Below the pieces are notes generated by a model that did no database searches, was not told the DNA's origin, and saw nothing but the letters and a program-made list of their open reading frames with translations. A stretch of 64,000 nt of DNA from a phage. This document shows positions 17,715 through 56,013 of the stretch, piece after piece. Every line of letters starts with the position of its first letter. Position 1 is the stretch's first letter. Position numbers and translations under genes: made by a program. The stretch is taken from the sequence record PZ402301.1, one strand, 5' to 3'.

Positions 17715-17737
17715 TTTATTCTCCTTAGTTGATAGGG

Positions 17738-17770
17738 TAATAGTATCATACTACTACCCTTCTGTAAACT
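17738..17770 (-). promoter_or_regulatory. early promoter-like element
   Basis: GTTTAC (rc of 17764-17769), TACTAT -10. Confidence 0.5.
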
Positions 17771-18134
17771 ACTTTTTGAAAGTTTTTCGCAAAAGTTCAA
17801 TGATTTCATCTACATTGTTTTCGTCTACAATGCAGTGAATTTTTGTTACGCCAGAAACCTTGTCTTTGACTTCATCTTCTTCAGAAGTCGATTCTTTATA
17901 CTCGCGAAAACAATGAAATTCGTCTTCACAGACGTTGAAGTAAAAATGCTTTCCATTTGCGCATTCAATGTGTTTTATTACTCTAAATCCATCAGCAAAG
18001 AAAGCTTCTTTAACTTCAAACCATCCGCCATTATCTCGAATAGCTTTAACTATTGATGAATTAGAACGCGGGCGATAATTAATAAATGTATCAATAAGTC
18101 TTGGAACAAGTTCATATTTTCTACCAATATACAT
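17769..18134 (-). CDS. hypothetical protein, 121 aa
   Basis: ORF track; cysteine/histidine-containing small protein. Confidence 0.55.
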   Translation of the reverse strand: MYIGRKYELVPRLIDTFINYRPRSNSSIVKAIRDNGGWFEVKEAFFADGFRVIKHIECANGKHFYFNVCEDEFHCFREYKESTSEEDEVKDKVSGVTKIHCIVDENNVDEIIELLRKTFKK

Positions 18135-18178: not shown

Positions 18179-18412
18179 TTACTGCTCAATAAATCCTGTG
18201 TAAAATTCTACATCTTCAGCATCCATACCGTCACAATATTCATTAACCATAAATTGTTTAAGACGATTTAAAGGACCTTCAATAACAACTGAAACATTGC
18301 AATTGGGGTCATTTAGTGCGCTTGTAATACGGAGTTCAGGATAACGATTACGAATAATTTCTTCAATATATTCAAAATCAACAACATCAATATCAATTTT
18401 AGCCATGTTATT
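18179..18412 (-). CDS. hypothetical protein, 77 aa (start moved to [10 protein letters not shown]...)
   Basis: Track ORF runs through promoter and terminator; internal ATG at 18410-18412 lies just downstream of promoter 18451-18483. Confidence 0.55.
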
Positions 18413-18450
18413 TTCCTCTTTAATCATCATCAGCAGTATTGCCGATAGTT

Positions 18451-18483
18451 GTATAGTACCACAGTATGCTTTGGTTGTAAACC
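18451..18483 (-). promoter_or_regulatory. early promoter for the frd.x-frd-td transcription unit
   Basis: GTTTAC (rc of 18477-18482), TACTATAC -10; immediately downstream of gene 32 terminator. Confidence 0.6.
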
Positions 18484-18504
18484 GTTTTGTGAAAAAATTT
18501 TTGA

Positions 18505-18533
18505 AATAAAAAAAGGGGACCTCTAGGGTCCCC
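18505..18533 (-). terminator. rho-independent terminator downstream of gene 32
   Basis: Hairpin GGGGACCctagaGGTCCCC followed by U-run on minus strand. Confidence 0.75.
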
Positions 18534-21829: not shown

Positions 21830-24800
21830 ATGGCCGAGATTAAAAGAAAGTTCAGAGCAGAAGACGGTCTGGACGCAGGTGGCGATAAAATAATCAACGT
21901 AGCTTTAGCTGATCGTACCGTAGGAACTGACGGTGTCAACGTTGATTACTTAATTCAAGAAAACACAGTTCAACAATACGATCCAACTCGTGGATATTTA
22001 AAAGATTTTGTAATCATTTATGATAACCGCTTTTGGGCTGCTATAAATGATATTCCAAAACCAGCAGGAGCTTTTAATAGCGTACGCTGGAGAGCATTAC
22101 GTACTGATGCTAATTGGACAACTGTTTCATCAGGACCTTATCAATTAAAGTCAGGCGAATCAATTTCAGTTGATACTGCAGCTGGTAATGACATTACATT
22201 TACTTTACCATCTTCCCCAATTGATGGAGATACTATCGTTCTCCAAGACATTGGAGGAAAACCTGGTGTTAACCAAGTTTTAATTACCGCTCCGGTGCAA
22301 AGCATTGTAAATTTTAGAGGTCAGCAAGTACGATCAGTACTAATGACTCATCCAAAATCGCAGATAGTTTTAATTTTTAGTAATCGTCTGTGGCAAATGT
22401 ATGTTGCTGATTATAGCAGAGAAGCTGCAGTTGTAACACCGGCAAGTCTTTATCAGGCGCAATCTAACGATTTTATTGTACGCAGATTTACTTCCGCTGC
22501 GCCGATTAATATTAAACTTCCGAGATTCGCTAATCATGGCGATATTATTAATTTCGTCGATTTAGATAAACTAAATCCACTTTATCATACAATTGTTACT
22601 ACATACGATGAAACTACTTCAATACAAGAAGATGGAACTCATTCCATTGAAGGTCGTACATCGATTGATGGTTTCTTGATGTATGATGATAATGAAAAAT
22701 TGTGGAGATTGTTTGACGGGGATAGTAAAGCACGTTTACGTATTATAACAACTAATTCTAGTATTCGTCCAAATGAAGAAGTTATGGTATTTGGAGCGAA
22801 TAACGGAACAACCCAAACAATTGAACTTCAGCTTCCAACTGATATTTCTATTGGTGATACTGTTAAAATTTCCATGAATTACATGAGAAAAGGCCAAACA
22901 GTTAAAATCAAAGCTGCTGGTGAAGATAAAATTGCTTCTTCAGTTCAATTGCTGCAATTCCCAAAACGTTCAGAGTATCCGCCTGAAACTAAATGGGTGA
23001 CTGTTCAAGAATTAGTTTTTAACGGCGAAACTAATTATGTTCCAGTTTTACAGCTTGCTTATATAGAAGATTCTGATGGAAAATACTGGGTTGTACAACA
23101 AAACGTTCCAACTGTAGAAAGAGTTGATTCTTTAAATAATTCTACTAGAGCAAGATTAGGCGTAATTGCTTTAGCTACACAAGCTCAAGCTAATGTCGAT
23201 TTAGAAAATTCTCCGCAAAAAGAATTAGCAATTACCCCAGAAACATTAGCTAACCGTACTGCTACAGAAACTCGTAGAGGTATCGCAAGAATAGCAACTA
23301 CTGCCCAAGTGAACCAGGATACTACATTCTCTTTTGCTGATGATATTATCATCACTCCTAAAAAGCTGAATGAAAGAACTGCTACAGAAACTCGCAGAGG
23401 TGTTGCTGAAATTGCGACGCAGCAAGAAACTAACGCAGGTACTGATGATACTACAATCATCACTCCTAAAAAGCTTCAAGCTCGTCAAGGTTCTGAATCA
23501 TTATCTGGTATTGTAACCTTTGTATCTACTGCAGGAGCTACTCCAGCTTCTAGTCGTGAATTAAATGGTACAAACGTTTATAATAAAAACACTAATAATT
23601 TAGTTGTTTCGCCTAAAGCTTTGGATCAGTATAAAGCTACTCCAACGCAACAAGGTGCAGTAATTTTAGCAGTTGAAAGTGAAGTAATTGCTGGACAAAG
23701 CCAAGAAGGATGGGCAAATGCGGTTGTAACGCCAGAAACGTTACATAAAAAGACATCGACTGATGCAAGAATTGGTTTAATTGAAATTGCTACGCAAAGT
23801 GAAGTTAATACAGGAACTGATTATACTCGTGCAGTCACTCCTAAAACTTTAAATGACCGTAAAGCAACTGAAAGTTTAAGTGGTATAGCTGAAATTGCTA
23901 CGCAAGTTGAATTCGACGCAGGCGTCGACGATACTCGTATCTCTACACCATTAAAAATTAAAACCAGATTTAATAGTACTGATCGTACTTCTGTTGTTGC
24001 TCTATCTGGATTAGTTGAATCAGGAACTCTCTGGGACCATTATACCCTTAATATTCTTGAAGCAAATGAGACACAACGTGGTACACTTCGTGTGGCTACG
24101 CAAGTTGAAGCTGCTACAGGAACATTAGATAATGTTTTAATAACTCCTAAAAAGCTTTTAGGTACTAAATCTACTGAAGCACAGGAAGGCGTTATTAAAG
24201 TTGCAACTCAGTCTGAAACTGTAGCTGGAACGTCAGCAAATACTGCTGTATCTCCAAAAAATTTAAAATGGATTGTGCAGAGTGAACCTACTTGGGCAGC
24301 TACTACTCTGGTAAGAGGTTTTGTTAAAACTTCATCTGGTTCAATTACATTCGTTGGTAATGATACGGTTGGTTCAACGCAGTCATTAGACTTGTACGAG
24401 AAAAATAGCTATGCGGTATCACCATATGAATTAAACCGTGTATTAGCAAATTATTTGCCGTTAAAAGCAAAAGCTGTAGATAGTAATTTACTGGATGGTC
24501 TAGATTCATCTCAGTTCATTCGTAGGGATATTGCGCAGACGGTTAATGGTTCACTAACCTTAACACAACAAACGAATCTGAGTGCCCCTCTTGTATCATC
24601 TAGTACTGCTACGTTCGGTGGATCAGTTTCAGCAAATAGTACACTAACTATTTCTAATACTGGAACAGCGACTCGTCTGATTTTTGAGAAAGGACCTCAA
24701 ACTGGAACGAACCCAGCGCAGACGATGACTGTCAAAGTGTGGGGGAATCAATTTAGCGGGGAATCAGATACAACACGTTCTACTGTATTTGAAGTTAGTG

Positions 24801-34449: not shown

Positions 34450-35085
34450 TCACAGTTCAGATGCTACGGTGATTACTGCTTCAATGTTTTCTGCAGAGCG
34501 TTTAATGTCAAGATACACATTACCATTTTTAGCGATTTTGCATGACATTCCGATATCAGTAAATTTCTGAATATGATGTTCCATCATTTTGTATCCAAAA
34601 ATTCGCATATTTCCATTGTTGTTAATTTCAAAATTACGAATTCCGTGAGTGCGTTTTTCTAAAATAGCGAGATAGTTACTACGATAAGTTTCAACCTTTT
34701 TAAGAACAAATCCATTTTCATCTAAAAGTTTTAACATGAAGTCTTTATCTTCTTCCATATCGGAAGTAATCTCACGAGCTTTACGGGTTGCTCGTTTTTT
34801 CAGTAGTTCCGGAGCATTTTCCTGTGCGTATAAAGTTGCTGCATTTGAAATAATATCCTGAGCTTCACCAGTAATGATTAATCCATCACCAGATTTCTCC
34901 ACCAGGCCTTTTTTAATCAATACCCCAATATTACTATTAACTACTGCGTTACCTAAATCTGGATGCACCTCACGAACTTCTGCAGCTGTAATGAAATCTT
35001 TCTTAGCAATGGTAATTAAAATCGCAGCAGTTTTTTCATTCAGAACATCGTTAGAAGCTTTGATGATGTAAGTTACTTTAGACAT
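34450..35085 (-). CDS. motA: MotA middle-transcription activator
   Basis: 211 aa, T4 MotA length and sequence pattern; promoter 35124-35157 upstream. Confidence 0.9.
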   Translation of the reverse strand: MSKVTYIIKASNDVLNEKTAAILITIAKKDFITAAEVREVHPDLGNAVVNSNIGVLIKKGLVEKSGDGLIITGEAQDIISNAATLYAQENAPELLKKRATRKAREITSDMEEDKDFMLKLLDENGFVLKKVETYRSNYLAILEKRTHGIRNFEINNNGNMRIFGYKMMEHHIQKFTDIGMSCKIAKNGNVYLDIKRSAENIEAVITVASEL

Positions 35086-35123
35086 TTTCTAATCTCCGTA
35101 ATTCTGTATCAGTAGTTGATAGT

Positions 35124-35157
35124 TGTATAGTACCACAGTATGCTTTGGTTGTAAACC
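35124..35157 (-). promoter_or_regulatory. early promoter upstream of motA (near-identical copy of 18451-18483)
   Basis: GTTTAC (rc of 35151-35156), TACTATAC -10; about 70 bp nearly identical to promoter at 18445-18517. Confidence 0.6.
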
Positions 35158-35177
35158 GTTTTGTGAAAAAAATTTTG

Positions 35178-35207
35178 AAATAAAAAAGGGAGAGCCTCGG
35201 CTCTCCC
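35178..35207 (-). terminator. rho-independent terminator upstream of motA promoter
   Basis: Hairpin GGGAGAGCC-GGCTCTCCC followed by U-run on minus strand. Confidence 0.7.
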
Positions 35208-35213
35208 TAAAAT

Positions 35214-38236: not shown

Positions 38237-38258
38237 TTTCTGTTCCTCTGTAGTTGAT

Positions 38259-38295
38259 AGGGTAATAATACCACAGAGGAACAGTCTTGTAAACA
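38259..38295 (-). promoter_or_regulatory. early promoter-like element
   Basis: GTTTAC (rc of 38289-38294), TATTATTAC -10. Confidence 0.5.
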
Positions 38296-38301
38296 ACTTT
38301 T

Positions 38302-38400
38302 TTAAAAATATTCGTAATAAATGTGAATGCCAATCACTACTGCCGAAACTTGCGCAACCCACCATGCACAAGCAATAAGTACAGAATTCAAAATTTTCAT
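38302..38400 (-). CDS. tiny hydrophobic peptide, 32 aa
   Basis: Found by reading; GAGG RBS; ATGA overlap with upstream tiny ORF. Confidence 0.35.
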   Translation of the reverse strand: MKILNSVLIACAWWVAQVSAVVIGIHIYYEYF

Positions 38401-38955: not shown

Positions 38956-38986
38956 TTTATTCTCCAAATCTATATCAGTTGATAGT

Positions 38987-39020
38987 TGTATAGTACCACA
39001 GTCCTTGTGGTATGTAAACC
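38987..39020 (-). promoter_or_regulatory. early promoter-like element
   Basis: GTTTAC (rc of 39014-39019), TACTATAC -10. Confidence 0.5.
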
Positions 39021-39035
39021 GTTTTGTGAAATTTT

Positions 39036-39593
39036 TTAAATGGAAAGATACCATCCGTTGTAGTTGCTTTTTCTTACAACTTTACGAAGGTCTTCTCTAT
39101 CACCGATGAACTTCGGAGTGTACTGGATGACACCTGGATGAATTTCTTTAGTGTTGAATATAATTATACAGTCAGCGACTTGATGATTTAGAATGGGCCC
39201 TAGATTTATTCCAGAACCGTATGGATACTCTCCGCTGCATCCGGTTGTTACCGAAATCCAACGTGAGTCAGTTTGATGTGTTTTGACTTCTACACGAAGC
39301 CCGCAGTATCTTGGGTGCGCCAGTACATCCCACGCATATGTATACGGGTCATTAACATCCTCTTGGCCTTTGTTAACATACCCGCTTAGCCAATCTGCTA
39401 CAAAAAACTCTGCATACACAGCGATACGACATCTTTCAATGACTTCTGCTTTATCCTGGTTCGGGTTTTGTTTTAAAGAGTATCTTGCTGTATCAGCAAT
39501 TTTGACCTTCATTTCACTAGTCAAATCATTGTTCGATAGGGTAAATGTCGGAATCTGAAATAGTCTCTGTAAACCTGGATTCGTTTTCTGCAT
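39036..39593 (-). CDS. denB: endonuclease IV
   Basis: 185 aa, T4 DenB length; position between ndd block and rIIB. Confidence 0.85.
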   Translation of the reverse strand: MQKTNPGLQRLFQIPTFTLSNNDLTSEMKVKIADTARYSLKQNPNQDKAEVIERCRIAVYAEFFVADWLSGYVNKGQEDVNDPYTYAWDVLAHPRYCGLRVEVKTHQTDSRWISVTTGCSGEYPYGSGINLGPILNHQVADCIIIFNTKEIHPGVIQYTPKFIGDREDLRKVVRKSNYNGWYLSI

Positions 39594-40088: not shown

Positions 40089-40116
40089 AATTTTCCTTAG
40101 TTAAGGGCCGAAGCCC

Positions 40117-41055
40117 TTATTTAAATTGTTCAGTAACGTCTTCAACTACTTCGTATTGGCAGGTACGCATTTTAGCGTCGTTATAATCAATCGGAATTGA
40201 TACTACATCGCGAGGATGTACTTTAACTTTTACAACTCGGCTGGTTGAACTGCCAAAGTGACGAATATAAGATTTAGAACACACATGCAGACCACGAGAA
40301 CAAGTTTGTGTATCATCGTCATTCACACGAGTACGTGGCATTTTAACTACTTTGCCAGGACTGTTATCAAAAGTATTTGAATGACAGTCAAAGTAATTAC
40401 TGCGAACTACTTTCCAAGCATAGAAGTAACCGTCTTCTGTAATTTCAATATCGTTTGCTACCAAAAAATCAAAGAGTCGAGATACTGCTTTTTGGCTTGG
40501 GTTTTCCAGCAGATTTTCCAAGAACGGAAAATAAAATTCAAAGTTTTCGCCTTTTTCCATCGAATCAAGAATACGATCAACTAAACCAGATCGCAATTCA
40601 ATATTTTGATAGAACAAGCTTCCACCTTCAATTCGAACATCACCGGAAATATATTTTTCAACAGCGCGACGAACGTTAATTTTTTGCGCTGCTTCTTCCA
40701 ATTTATCTGCAACAAGCAGATTAAGAATTTCTTGGAAGTTTGAATGAGTATTAGGAGTTGCGTTATAAGTTACACCGTCAACAGTAATTGAAATGAATTT
40801 TTTAGATGCATTCCAAATAATGTCAGATTTAGCAACTGGAGCAATAGCTGCATCGCTCTTAACTGTAACTGTAATGTCACCGCTAATGGTAACTTTGGAG
40901 CGCTCAGCTTCTTCAGCATTTTTCAAAACACGACGGATTGTGTCAACCGATACACCTTGCCAATCAGCCAATTCCTGTTGGGTATAATTACCACTTGAAT
41001 ACAATTTAACAATTTCAGCTTGTTCGTTTTTGGTCAGGCATTTAATATTGTACAT
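40117..41055 (-). CDS. rIIB: RIIB membrane-associated protein
   Basis: 312 aa, T4 rIIB length; adjacent to rIIA. Confidence 0.9.
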   Translation of the reverse strand: MYNIKCLTKNEQAEIVKLYSSGNYTQQELADWQGVSVDTIRRVLKNAEEAERSKVTISGDITVTVKSDAAIAPVAKSDIIWNASKKFISITVDGVTYNATPNTHSNFQEILNLLVADKLEEAAQKINVRRAVEKYISGDVRIEGGSLFYQNIELRSGLVDRILDSMEKGENFEFYFPFLENLLENPSQKAVSRLFDFLVANDIEITEDGYFYAWKVVRSNYFDCHSNTFDNSPGKVVKMPRTRVNDDDTQTCSRGLHVCSKSYIRHFGSSTSRVVKVKVHPRDVVSIPIDYNDAKMRTCQYEVVEDVTEQFK

Positions 41056-47147: not shown

Positions 47148-47232
47148 GTTATTTTCTGTATCAGTAGTTGATATTGATATAGTACCATAATCAACTACTG
47201 ATGTATATAGTTTTATGAAAAAATTTTAAACT

Positions 47233-47730
47233 TTATGCACAGCGGGCTTTGCTATAGTGTTTAATCCAACTTTCAGGAATGGCTTTGTATGTTCCTAAAA
47301 ATACCGCGTTGTACAACTTAACGCCATCTTCTACCCATTGATCGGTAATGTATGCACACATAGCGCGAGTACGACGTTTTTGAACAACCCCTTCTTCGTC
47401 TTCGGTAAATTCAAATTCATAAGGAGCGACGAACTTAATAGCTTGACCGAGTTTCCACTTAAAGTCTACGCCTACATGCGAAGTATCAATCGTTTCAATT
47501 CCTTTAGCAGGAACAGCTTTCAAAAAAGCAGACTCAAGAAATTTCGCACGAACATAGCCAAACTGAGGTTTAGACTTTCCATCTTTAGGAATGATACGCA
47601 CTTTTACTTCAGAATCTTCATCTTTAACGCCATGTTTAAGCTGAATGCTTACAATTTCGACCAATTTTCCTGCTGCTTTAGAACGGGATTTATCAGATAC
47701 ACGAGCAATTTCACCAATATTAATAATCAT
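47233..47730 (-). CDS. hypothetical protein, 165 aa (T4 motB position); paralogue of next ORF
   Basis: ORF track; shares C-terminal motif C.Y/W.TDQW(V/I)EDGV with ORF 47807-48349. Confidence 0.6.
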   Translation of the reverse strand: MIINIGEIARVSDKSRSKAAGKLVEIVSIQLKHGVKDEDSEVKVRIIPKDGKSKPQFGYVRAKFLESAFLKAVPAKGIETIDTSHVGVDFKWKLGQAIKFVAPYEFEFTEDEEGVVQKRRTRAMCAYITDQWVEDGVKLYNAVFLGTYKAIPESWIKHYSKARCA

Positions 47731-55980: not shown

Positions 55981-55984
55981 GGTA

Positions 55985-56013
55985 AAATGAAAAAGGACTC
56001 CCGAAGGAGTCCC
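55985..56013 (-). terminator. rho-independent terminator downstream of soc
   Basis: Hairpin GGACTCCttcgGGAGTCC, same stem as 2573-2592, followed by U-run. Confidence 0.75.

Follow-up and report, generated by a model that had tools for sequence, protein, structure and literature searches.

Genome setting and layout of the two cassettes

The window analysed here, a stretch of 64,000 nucleotides of phage DNA (sequence record PZ402301.1), is part of a Tequatrovirus (T4-like) genome. Both of the regions described below match hundreds of T-even phage records at 93–98% identity. Along the window the genes run td-frd-frd.1-frd.2-frd.3-32-59-33-dsbA-rnh-34-38-t-asiA-arn-motA-motA.1-52-...-denB-rIIB, with the early ones on the minus strand. 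Two early promoters in this region are almost the same. The first adjoins gene 32 on its downstream side and drives frd.3 and, after it, frd.2, frd.1 and frd; the second sits after motA.1 and drives motA. An earlier reading of the letters alone (referred to here as the sequence-only reading) had assigned the two to the frd operon and to motA, and had described a near-identical pair of roughly 70 bp differing by one substitution and one indel; both statements are borne out. Self-comparison of the window aligns 18444–18519 with 35118–35193, with matches at 74 of 76 positions, so that the segments had been placed correctly, with three of their four ends falling 1–4 nt short. The first 54 nt are exact at both sites (two matches; none in 100 dinucleotide-preserving shuffles). 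Past these 54 nt come the one substitution, T at 18498 against A at 35172, and one extra A in the A-run adjoining the hairpin. The copies are 16.7 kb apart and both work on the minus strand.

The features are listed in Table 1. Read along the minus strand, each copy runs from a terminator hairpin with its T-run through an A/T tract to tttttcacaaaacg-GTTTAC, an 18-nt spacer, TGn-TACTAT and acaactatc, beyond which each copy continues into a leader and start codon of its own. The promoter elements proposed from the sequence (a GTTTAC −35, a spacer, a −10 and the start of a leader) are found in both copies, in the form TTTACA-17-TACTAT with an upstream TG, and the hairpin expected before each copy is there as an intrinsic-terminator-like hairpin with a T-run, at 18533..18515 and 35208..35187. 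The gene 32 hairpin is the stem-loop part of the frd.3 cassette and is absent from the motA copy. The frd.3 leader is not found in the motA copy either, and sets the downstream limit of the shared tract. The Shine-Dalgarno to start regions are aaagaggaaaataac-ATG at 18406 for frd.3 and acggagattagaaa-ATG at 35085 for motA.

We note that the loops of both terminators vary between phages on unchanged stems. The gene 32 terminator reads GGGGACC-CTAGA-GGTCCCC in some phages and GGGGACC-TCTAG-GGTCCCC in others, and the motA.1 terminator reads GAGAGCC-GA-GGCTCTC in some and GAGAGCC-TC-GGCTCTC in others. The loops are thus reverse-complemented between phages (the window against RB14 and others), which looks like loop inversion via template switching or recombination within the palindrome.

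Table 1. Features of the promoter cassettes in the window, and sites of the promoter family in T4
Feature	Position	Strand	Remarks
Repeat copy 1, frd.3 early-promoter cassette (A/T tract, −35, spacer, TGn/−10, start region)	18444..18519	−	Self-comparison, T4 comparison
Gene 32 intrinsic terminator hairpin, GGGGACC-CTAGA-GGTCCCC then T-run	18515..18533	−	
P(frd.3) −35, GTTTAC	18477..18482	−	
P(frd.3) 18-nt spacer, aaccaaagcatactgtgg	18459..18476	−	motA-type "barcode"; putative minimal converted tract at the frd.3 site
P(frd.3) −10, TACTAT with upstream TGn	18453..18458	−	
TTTACA-17-TACTAT with upstream TG	18481..18453 and 35155..35127	−	
frd.3-specific leader (cggcaatactgc...), Shine-Dalgarno and frd.3 ATG (18406–18404)	18404..18443	−	
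Repeat copy 2, motA early-promoter cassette	35118..35193	−	Probable donor
P(motA) −35 GTTTAC; spacer; −10 TACTAT	35156–35151; 35150–35133; 35132–35127	−	
motA.1 terminator hairpin, AGGGAGAGCC-GA-GGCTCTCCCT then T-run	35187..35208	−	
motA leader (aactactgatacagaattacGGAGattagaaa) and motA ATG (35085–35083)	35083..35117	−	
Third family member in the window, promoter just after denB (ndd.6 site in T4)	38981..39056	−	Arms identical; spacer ataccacaaggactgtgg differs; 3.9 kb from the motA cassette
Degenerate family member	47170..47245	−	Shared upstream tttttcaTaaaac, TGG-TACTAT and atcaactactgatacagaa leader; −35 decayed to TATACA
P(imm.1)	T4 NC_000866, ~27.07 kb		Between 43 and imm.1
P(nrdC.10)	T4 NC_000866, ~55.37 kb		Between nrdC.11 and nrdC.10
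P(e.8)	T4 NC_000866, ~70.68 kb		Upstream of e.8
P(frd.3)	T4 NC_000866, 146.87 kb		Between 32 and frd.3
P(motA)	T4 NC_000866, 163.67 kb		Between motA.1 and motA
P(ndd.6)	T4 NC_000866, 167.09 kb		After denB

Comparison with other early promoters

T4 early promoters form an "uber" UP/−35/TGn/−10 class with extra consensus beyond the sigma-70 elements, and MotA is itself an early product (Hinton, 2010; PMC2988021). Both copies have the elements of this class: a UP-like A/T tract, a GTTTAC −35, TGn and a TAnnnT −10. The two promoters might therefore be alike simply because they share a long early-promoter consensus under strong selection, with no transfer of sequence between them. The further consensus regions reported for this class (PMC2988021) favor such an explanation, as does the fact that the conserved arms described below coincide with RNA polymerase contact regions. 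We compared the 21 GTTTAC-type minus-strand early promoters of the window over 95 nt, anchored on the −35. The frd.3/motA pair is 81% identical over the 95 columns, while the other pairs have a mean of 42% (sd 6%) and the next best reaches 61%. Restricting the comparison to the 67 low-information columns leaves the pair at 76% identity, whereas the remaining pairs average 30% (sd 6%) and the best of them has 51%. The earlier claim that the identity exceeds what promoter function needs therefore withstands masking of the consensus. Moreover, whereas the window has one and the same 18-nt spacer at both sites, the T4 spacers at frd.3 and motA are unrelated, and the frd.3 site tolerates four unrelated spacers, as described below. 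Likeness through consensus alone is accordingly rejected, and we regard it as having hardly any chance of being correct.

The early promoters of the window as a general class are only about 40% identical pairwise; in contrast, the subfamily to which the pair belongs has six members with invariant arms of 20–40 nt. Lists of T4 early promoters have reportedly been compiled by Liebig & Ruger and by Wilkens & Ruger. In the searchable literature, which misses most of the T4 papers in subscription journals, we found nothing on the exchange of spacers between T4 early promoters.

Four partial copies had been suggested elsewhere in the window, and two of these belong to the family. That at about 38975–39030 is a true member, the promoter following denB, whose spacer (ataccacaaggactgtgg) is the source type for the frd.3 allele in SH7, JK38, HY01 and LF73P3. 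That at about 47160–47205 shares the arms and the leader, and its −35 is degenerate. The remaining two, at about 17728–17770 and 38255–38295, are ordinary early promoters of another subtype. This second subtype has a TAYTAT-taccctatcaacta leader, and its two examples (17733–17796, at the end of frd.2 and driving frd.1, and 38258–38321, in the ndd region) are 72% identical to each other; it may be another exchanging subfamily.

Further repeats were seen in the window. A 29-nt A-run and hairpin (GGACTCCCGAAGGAGTCC) is 97% identical at 2563–2591 and 55984–56012, 53 kb apart, and at each site a different early promoter (2543 and 55979, respectively) follows it directly. Another pair of hairpins, at 1684–1721 and 40090–40127, is 84% identical. 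Stem-loops, and not promoters alone, appear to be shared between cassettes. Several families of imperfect 33–50-nt direct repeats at 23258–24156, in the region of long tail fibre gene 34, are internal to coding sequence and have no relation to promoters.

The promoter family in T4

In T4, P(frd.3) and P(motA) have identical arms, 39 nt and 18 nt long (upstream ttttttattttaaaaattttttcacaaaacgGTTTACaa, downstream tggTACTATacaactatc), and unrelated spacers (aagcataaagcttta at frd.3 vs aaccaaagcatactg at motA). The frd.3 site of the window contains the exact motA spacer, yet it has its own gene 32 terminator upstream and its own frd.3 leader downstream. A motA spacer set within intact frd.3 flanks indicates that the near-identity arose when the interior of the cassette was replaced, its site staying the same.

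A scan of the whole T4 genome (NC_000866) found a subfamily with such arms at at least six sites (Table 1). The arms are invariant (tttttcacaaaacNGTTTACa ... tggTACTATacaactatc) and the spacers are site-specific, and the cassette follows the pattern CACAAAACN-GTTTAC-N18-TACTATACAAC. The frd.3 spacer of T4 is identical to the spacer of T4 P(nrdC.10). The motA-type spacer is present at the motA site in the window, T4, T6, RB14, P8 and three metagenomic contigs. A megablast search with the motA-type element matched 463 phage records, of which only about 35 have it in a second place; this second place is the frd.3 site in phages such as N2, R5505, teqskov and RB14. A similar search with the ndd.6-site cassette matched 258 records, a low number that arises because single-base variants break the 28-nt seed and that is no gauge of the stability of the ndd.6 site. 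A pattern scan of IMG/VR for the family arms gave seven stretches on five contigs, which provide extra examples and are too few for statistics.

Alleles at the frd.3 site

The sequence of the frd.3 site was read directly in 22 genomes or contigs, a sample drawn around frd.3, and falls into four alleles. The motA-type allele is found in the window, RB14, N2, R5505, teqskov, T4_ev240, NBEco003 and, with one mismatch, UFV-AREG1; the nrdC.10-type in T4, ime09, IME339 and KIT03; the e.8-type in T6, P8 and one UViG; and the ndd.6-type in SH7, JK38, HY01 and LF73P3. The motA-type, nrdC.10-type and T6 e.8-type alleles match their own paralog at 60 of 61 nt and the other paralogs at 43–55 of 61, and the P8 allele matches e.8 at 57 of 61. 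The ndd.6-type alleles match ndd.6 at 52–55 of 61 nt, compared with 46–52 for other paralogs. Their spacers are exact or match at 17 of 18 positions, and the modest score over 61 nt is due to the upstream A/T tract being out of register.

Synthetic 79-nt queries, each consisting of one of the spacers and the frd.3 leader, gave matches of 78–79 out of 79 nt in several independent records for all four alleles. The BLAST summary counts are unfit as allele frequencies, since they mix full frd.3 matches with perfect partial matches to paralogs and with alignments that have mismatched spacers: the four counts at ≥80% coverage add up to approximately twice the number of genomes. Allele frequencies are accordingly rough, and for these we relied on the count of about 35 extra places in 463 records and on the sequences that were read directly. 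We also note that T-even genomes are mosaic, and a tally of alleles is not a tally of independent conversion events.

The ends of the exchanged tract can be placed approximately. Position −36 is g, t or a, and which base it has usually goes with the spacer type; however, IME339 and UFV-AREG1 have t at −36 together with an nrdC.10-type or motA-type spacer, so that the tract must end inside the upstream arm. The ndd.6-type alleles retain the frd.3-type A/T tract, and their tract therefore begins downstream of about −47.

The closest genome to the window is that of P8, which is 98.1% identical over 17.3 kb but has the e.8-type allele at frd.3, implying that the change was a local patch. This comparison bears on whether the pair could be an old promoter duplication that has stayed undiverged at the two sites, with no repeated exchange. 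The family clearly arose through common ancestry or repeated copying, and its arms are identical in every member, as such a duplication would leave them. On the other hand, close relatives should then share the duplicate, but T4, T6, P8, SH7 and JK38 have other complete frd.3 spacers, each matching a different paralog, and over those 17 kb P8 differs only in the frd.3 patch. We therefore consider an undiverged duplication very improbable.

Two of the frd.3 sites have unusual features. In Shigella phage sb4 the spacer is atacaccaaagactgtgg, which resembles a chimera of ndd.6-type and motA-type sequence, and the start region has a small duplication (acatctatctatc). The record LR597657.1 (phage T4_ev240, named as evolved T4) has the motA-type allele and a flipped terminator loop, unlike reference T4. 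Should T4_ev240 be a laboratory descendant of T4, it would provide a date for an exchange of this kind; a literature search found no paper describing this phage.

Relation to the PeSL cassettes

The layout of the two copies resembles that of the PeSLs (promoter-early stem-loops) of T4-type phages (Arbiol et al., 2010, PMC2839356; Comeau, Arbiol & Krisch, 2014, PMC4122927). PeSLs were reported in RB49/phi1 and later in PST/T4 and nt-1/KVP40, and ORFs are believed to be shuffled by recombination between the cassettes (PMC2839356, PMC4122927). The promoter consensus given for the PST/T4 PeSLs is TTTACW-N17-TAYWAT (PMC4122927). Both copies in the window have a stem-loop just upstream of their own promoter, an A/T-rich region, TTTACA-17-TACTAT, and a Shine-Dalgarno sequence and start codon, and to judge from these elements the frd.3 and motA cassettes fit the PeSL class. 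They share with it the order of stem-loop, A/T tract, sigma-70-like promoter, Shine-Dalgarno and ATG, and the occurrence as dispersed copies that have been proposed as recombination sites. Furthermore, the ndd.4/ndd.5 region, which is a published PeSL example, adjoins the third copy in the window.

There are also clear differences. Published PeSL crossovers insert, delete or swap ORFs, and form mini-circles between nearby cassettes, whereas here the gene content is constant, the cassette interior alone is replaced, distances between copies range from 4 to about 90 kb, and the source is marked by the spacer. A term search of PMC2839356 showed that neither gene conversion nor concerted change nor spacers are mentioned there.

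Exchange at other sites

The whole genome of LF73P3 contains swaps at several sites. Its frd.3 spacer is ndd.6-type, the promoter after motA.1 has an nrdC.10-type spacer, and one and the same spacer, with a private C variant, occupies both imm.1 and e.8, a case of concerted change inside one genome. A gene-32-like terminator and a motA-type promoter, together 95.6% identical to the frd.3 cassette of the window, lie between genes that have no T4 counterpart. The swaps at several LF73P3 sites suggest that exchange is a property of the whole family, with frd.3 as the most variable site in a sample that was itself drawn around frd.3. The idea that the donor sites are monomorphic is weakened by the nrdC.10-type spacer after motA.1. 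Spacer twins within the same genome are seen in the window (frd.3 and motA), in T4 (frd.3 and nrdC.10) and in LF73P3 (frd.3 and ndd.6; imm.1 and e.8). This pattern of exchange across genomes implies that the cassettes have probably recombined with one another.

In IMGVR_UViG_3300045988_128797 (1260–1700) and in LF73P3 (~67608), a 75-residue ORF and a second, different early promoter separate the motA-site promoter from motA. This insert is flanked on both sides by the repeated leader CTATCAAATAAATGAACTGAAAC, which is the footprint to be expected of a putative PeSL-type cassette insertion. The frd.3 and motA promoters themselves keep their positions in every genome read, and the third copy of the window adjoins the variable ndd region.

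We then considered whether the promoter cassette could have arrived at frd.3 as an autonomous mobile element, by transposition or site-specific insertion. PeSL cassettes have been suggested to carry ORFs from place to place as mini-circles, perhaps through site-specific recombination (PMC2839356), and in LF73P3 a whole terminator-plus-promoter unit does stand in a foreign context. However, the frd.3 promoter is at the same position in every genome examined and its interior alone changes, with no target-site duplication, recombinase gene or change in length, and the stem-loops of the frd.3 and motA copies differ. We therefore reject a mobile element here, and attach almost no weight to it. Gene conversion within a resident cassette is the better description.

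Origin of the frd.3 cassette interior

We propose that the interior of the frd.3 cassette was overwritten by motA cassette sequence through short-patch ectopic gene conversion between dispersed promoter cassettes, and consider this to be likely on the basis of the sequence comparisons. At the frd.3 site there are alternative alleles, each identical to a paralog (motA, nrdC.10, e.8 or ndd.6), as expected for ectopic conversion. The transfer would be non-reciprocal: the motA site of the window equals the motA sites of T4, T6 and RB14, and frd.3 keeps its own flanks. In the lineage of the window, the interior would have been rewritten by homology-guided copying, with the two invariant arms serving as homology. 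The converted tract would be at least about 18 nt long (the spacer) and at most about 76 nt. The direction is probably from motA to frd.3, judging from which of the sites varies in the sample, although donor sites can vary as well, as LF73P3 shows.

The arms are probably kept identical by selection on the RNA-polymerase contacts (the UP-like tract, −35, TGn/−10 and start region). Selection of this kind would keep the family competent for recombination, and the uncontacted spacer, being free to differ, would mark the source. It is unlikely that particular spacers are preferred for functional reasons.

Ectopic (non-allelic) gene conversion among dispersed repeats is known, for example between bacterial rRNA operons (PMC8022953), and T-even crosses show co-conversion driven by homing endonucleases, with SegG cutting gene 32 (PMC2988022). 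As in such systems, the cassettes would have undergone non-reciprocal copying between dispersed homologous sequences with an unchanged donor, and double-strand breaks next to the frd.3 site are a documented source of local conversion in T-even phages. The differences are that the homology arms are very short here (about 18–40 nt) and that the units are regulatory elements rather than genes.

The sequence-only reading had suggested either recent gene conversion or a mobile promoter cassette, and at its core this is supported. Gene conversion agrees with the frd.3 spacer being that of motA, unlike T4, and an inserted mobile cassette does not agree with replacement of the interior at a fixed position. 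"Recent" is unproven for the window genome, because the motA-type allele is common to about 35 database phages, including RB14, N2 and R5505. It is in fact about equally probable, either way, that the copying happened a single time, long ago, in another phage, and that the allele was then inherited, or gained by homologous recombination between co-infecting T-even phages, so that nothing recent occurred here. The identical allele in RB14, N2, EP01, KIT06, R5505 and others, with some 35 records altogether, is consistent with this, as is the heavy mosaicism of T-even genomes (PMC4122927). Such a history is compatible with ectopic conversion as the origin of the allele and disputes its recency alone. 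The carriers of the motA-type allele, however, do not all share one leader haplotype or one terminator-loop orientation, which points to several events or to later recombination.

It had also been suggested that the direct repeats could mediate rearrangement. The segment between the frd.3 and motA repeats holds 32, 59, 33, rnh, 34–38, t and asiA, and its deletion would remove essential genes; rearrangement is therefore realistic only for closer pairs of cassettes.

Returning to ectopic conversion as the preferred origin, a possible source of breaks is offered by SegG, which is encoded between 32 and 59 in T4 and cuts gene 32 of phages that have no segG, starting local conversion (PMC2988022). 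The phage of the window has the segG-less arrangement, and its frd.3 cassette is less than 1 kb from gene 32. It is conceivable, although we think it unlikely, that after a SegG cut in gene 32 (within about 1 kb), resection bares the promoter arms and primes copying from any paralogous cassette, which would make frd.3 a preferred recipient and the spacers natural barcodes of break-driven ectopic repair. A link between cassette conversion and SegG or any other source of breaks is only a hypothesis. If it were true, regulatory cassettes throughout the genome would be constantly rewritten by the traffic of homing endonucleases, which would also keep the PeSL family uniform enough for gene shuffling.

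Significance

PeSLs have been proposed as the recombination substrates of gene shuffling in T4-type phages, on the evidence of indel junctions and mini-circles detected by PCR, which left homologous versus site-specific recombination open. The class itself is already known, and what is added here is a clearly documented exchange of the interior between its cassettes. The added value is moderate, and comes from the spacers, which being site-specific provide a simple and direct readout of exchange between cassettes. That one spacer recurs at different positions from phage to phage, with the ends of the tracts falling within the conserved arms, argues for homology-guided copying on arms of about 18–40 nt.

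There are practical consequences. Amplicon sequencing of one promoter offers a cheap assay of ectopic recombination in T4; the intergenic regions that contain these cassettes are unreliable as phylogenetic markers; and engineered T-even phages with repeated early promoters may be rewritten. For the phages themselves, the finding means that regulatory cassettes many kb apart evolve in concert.
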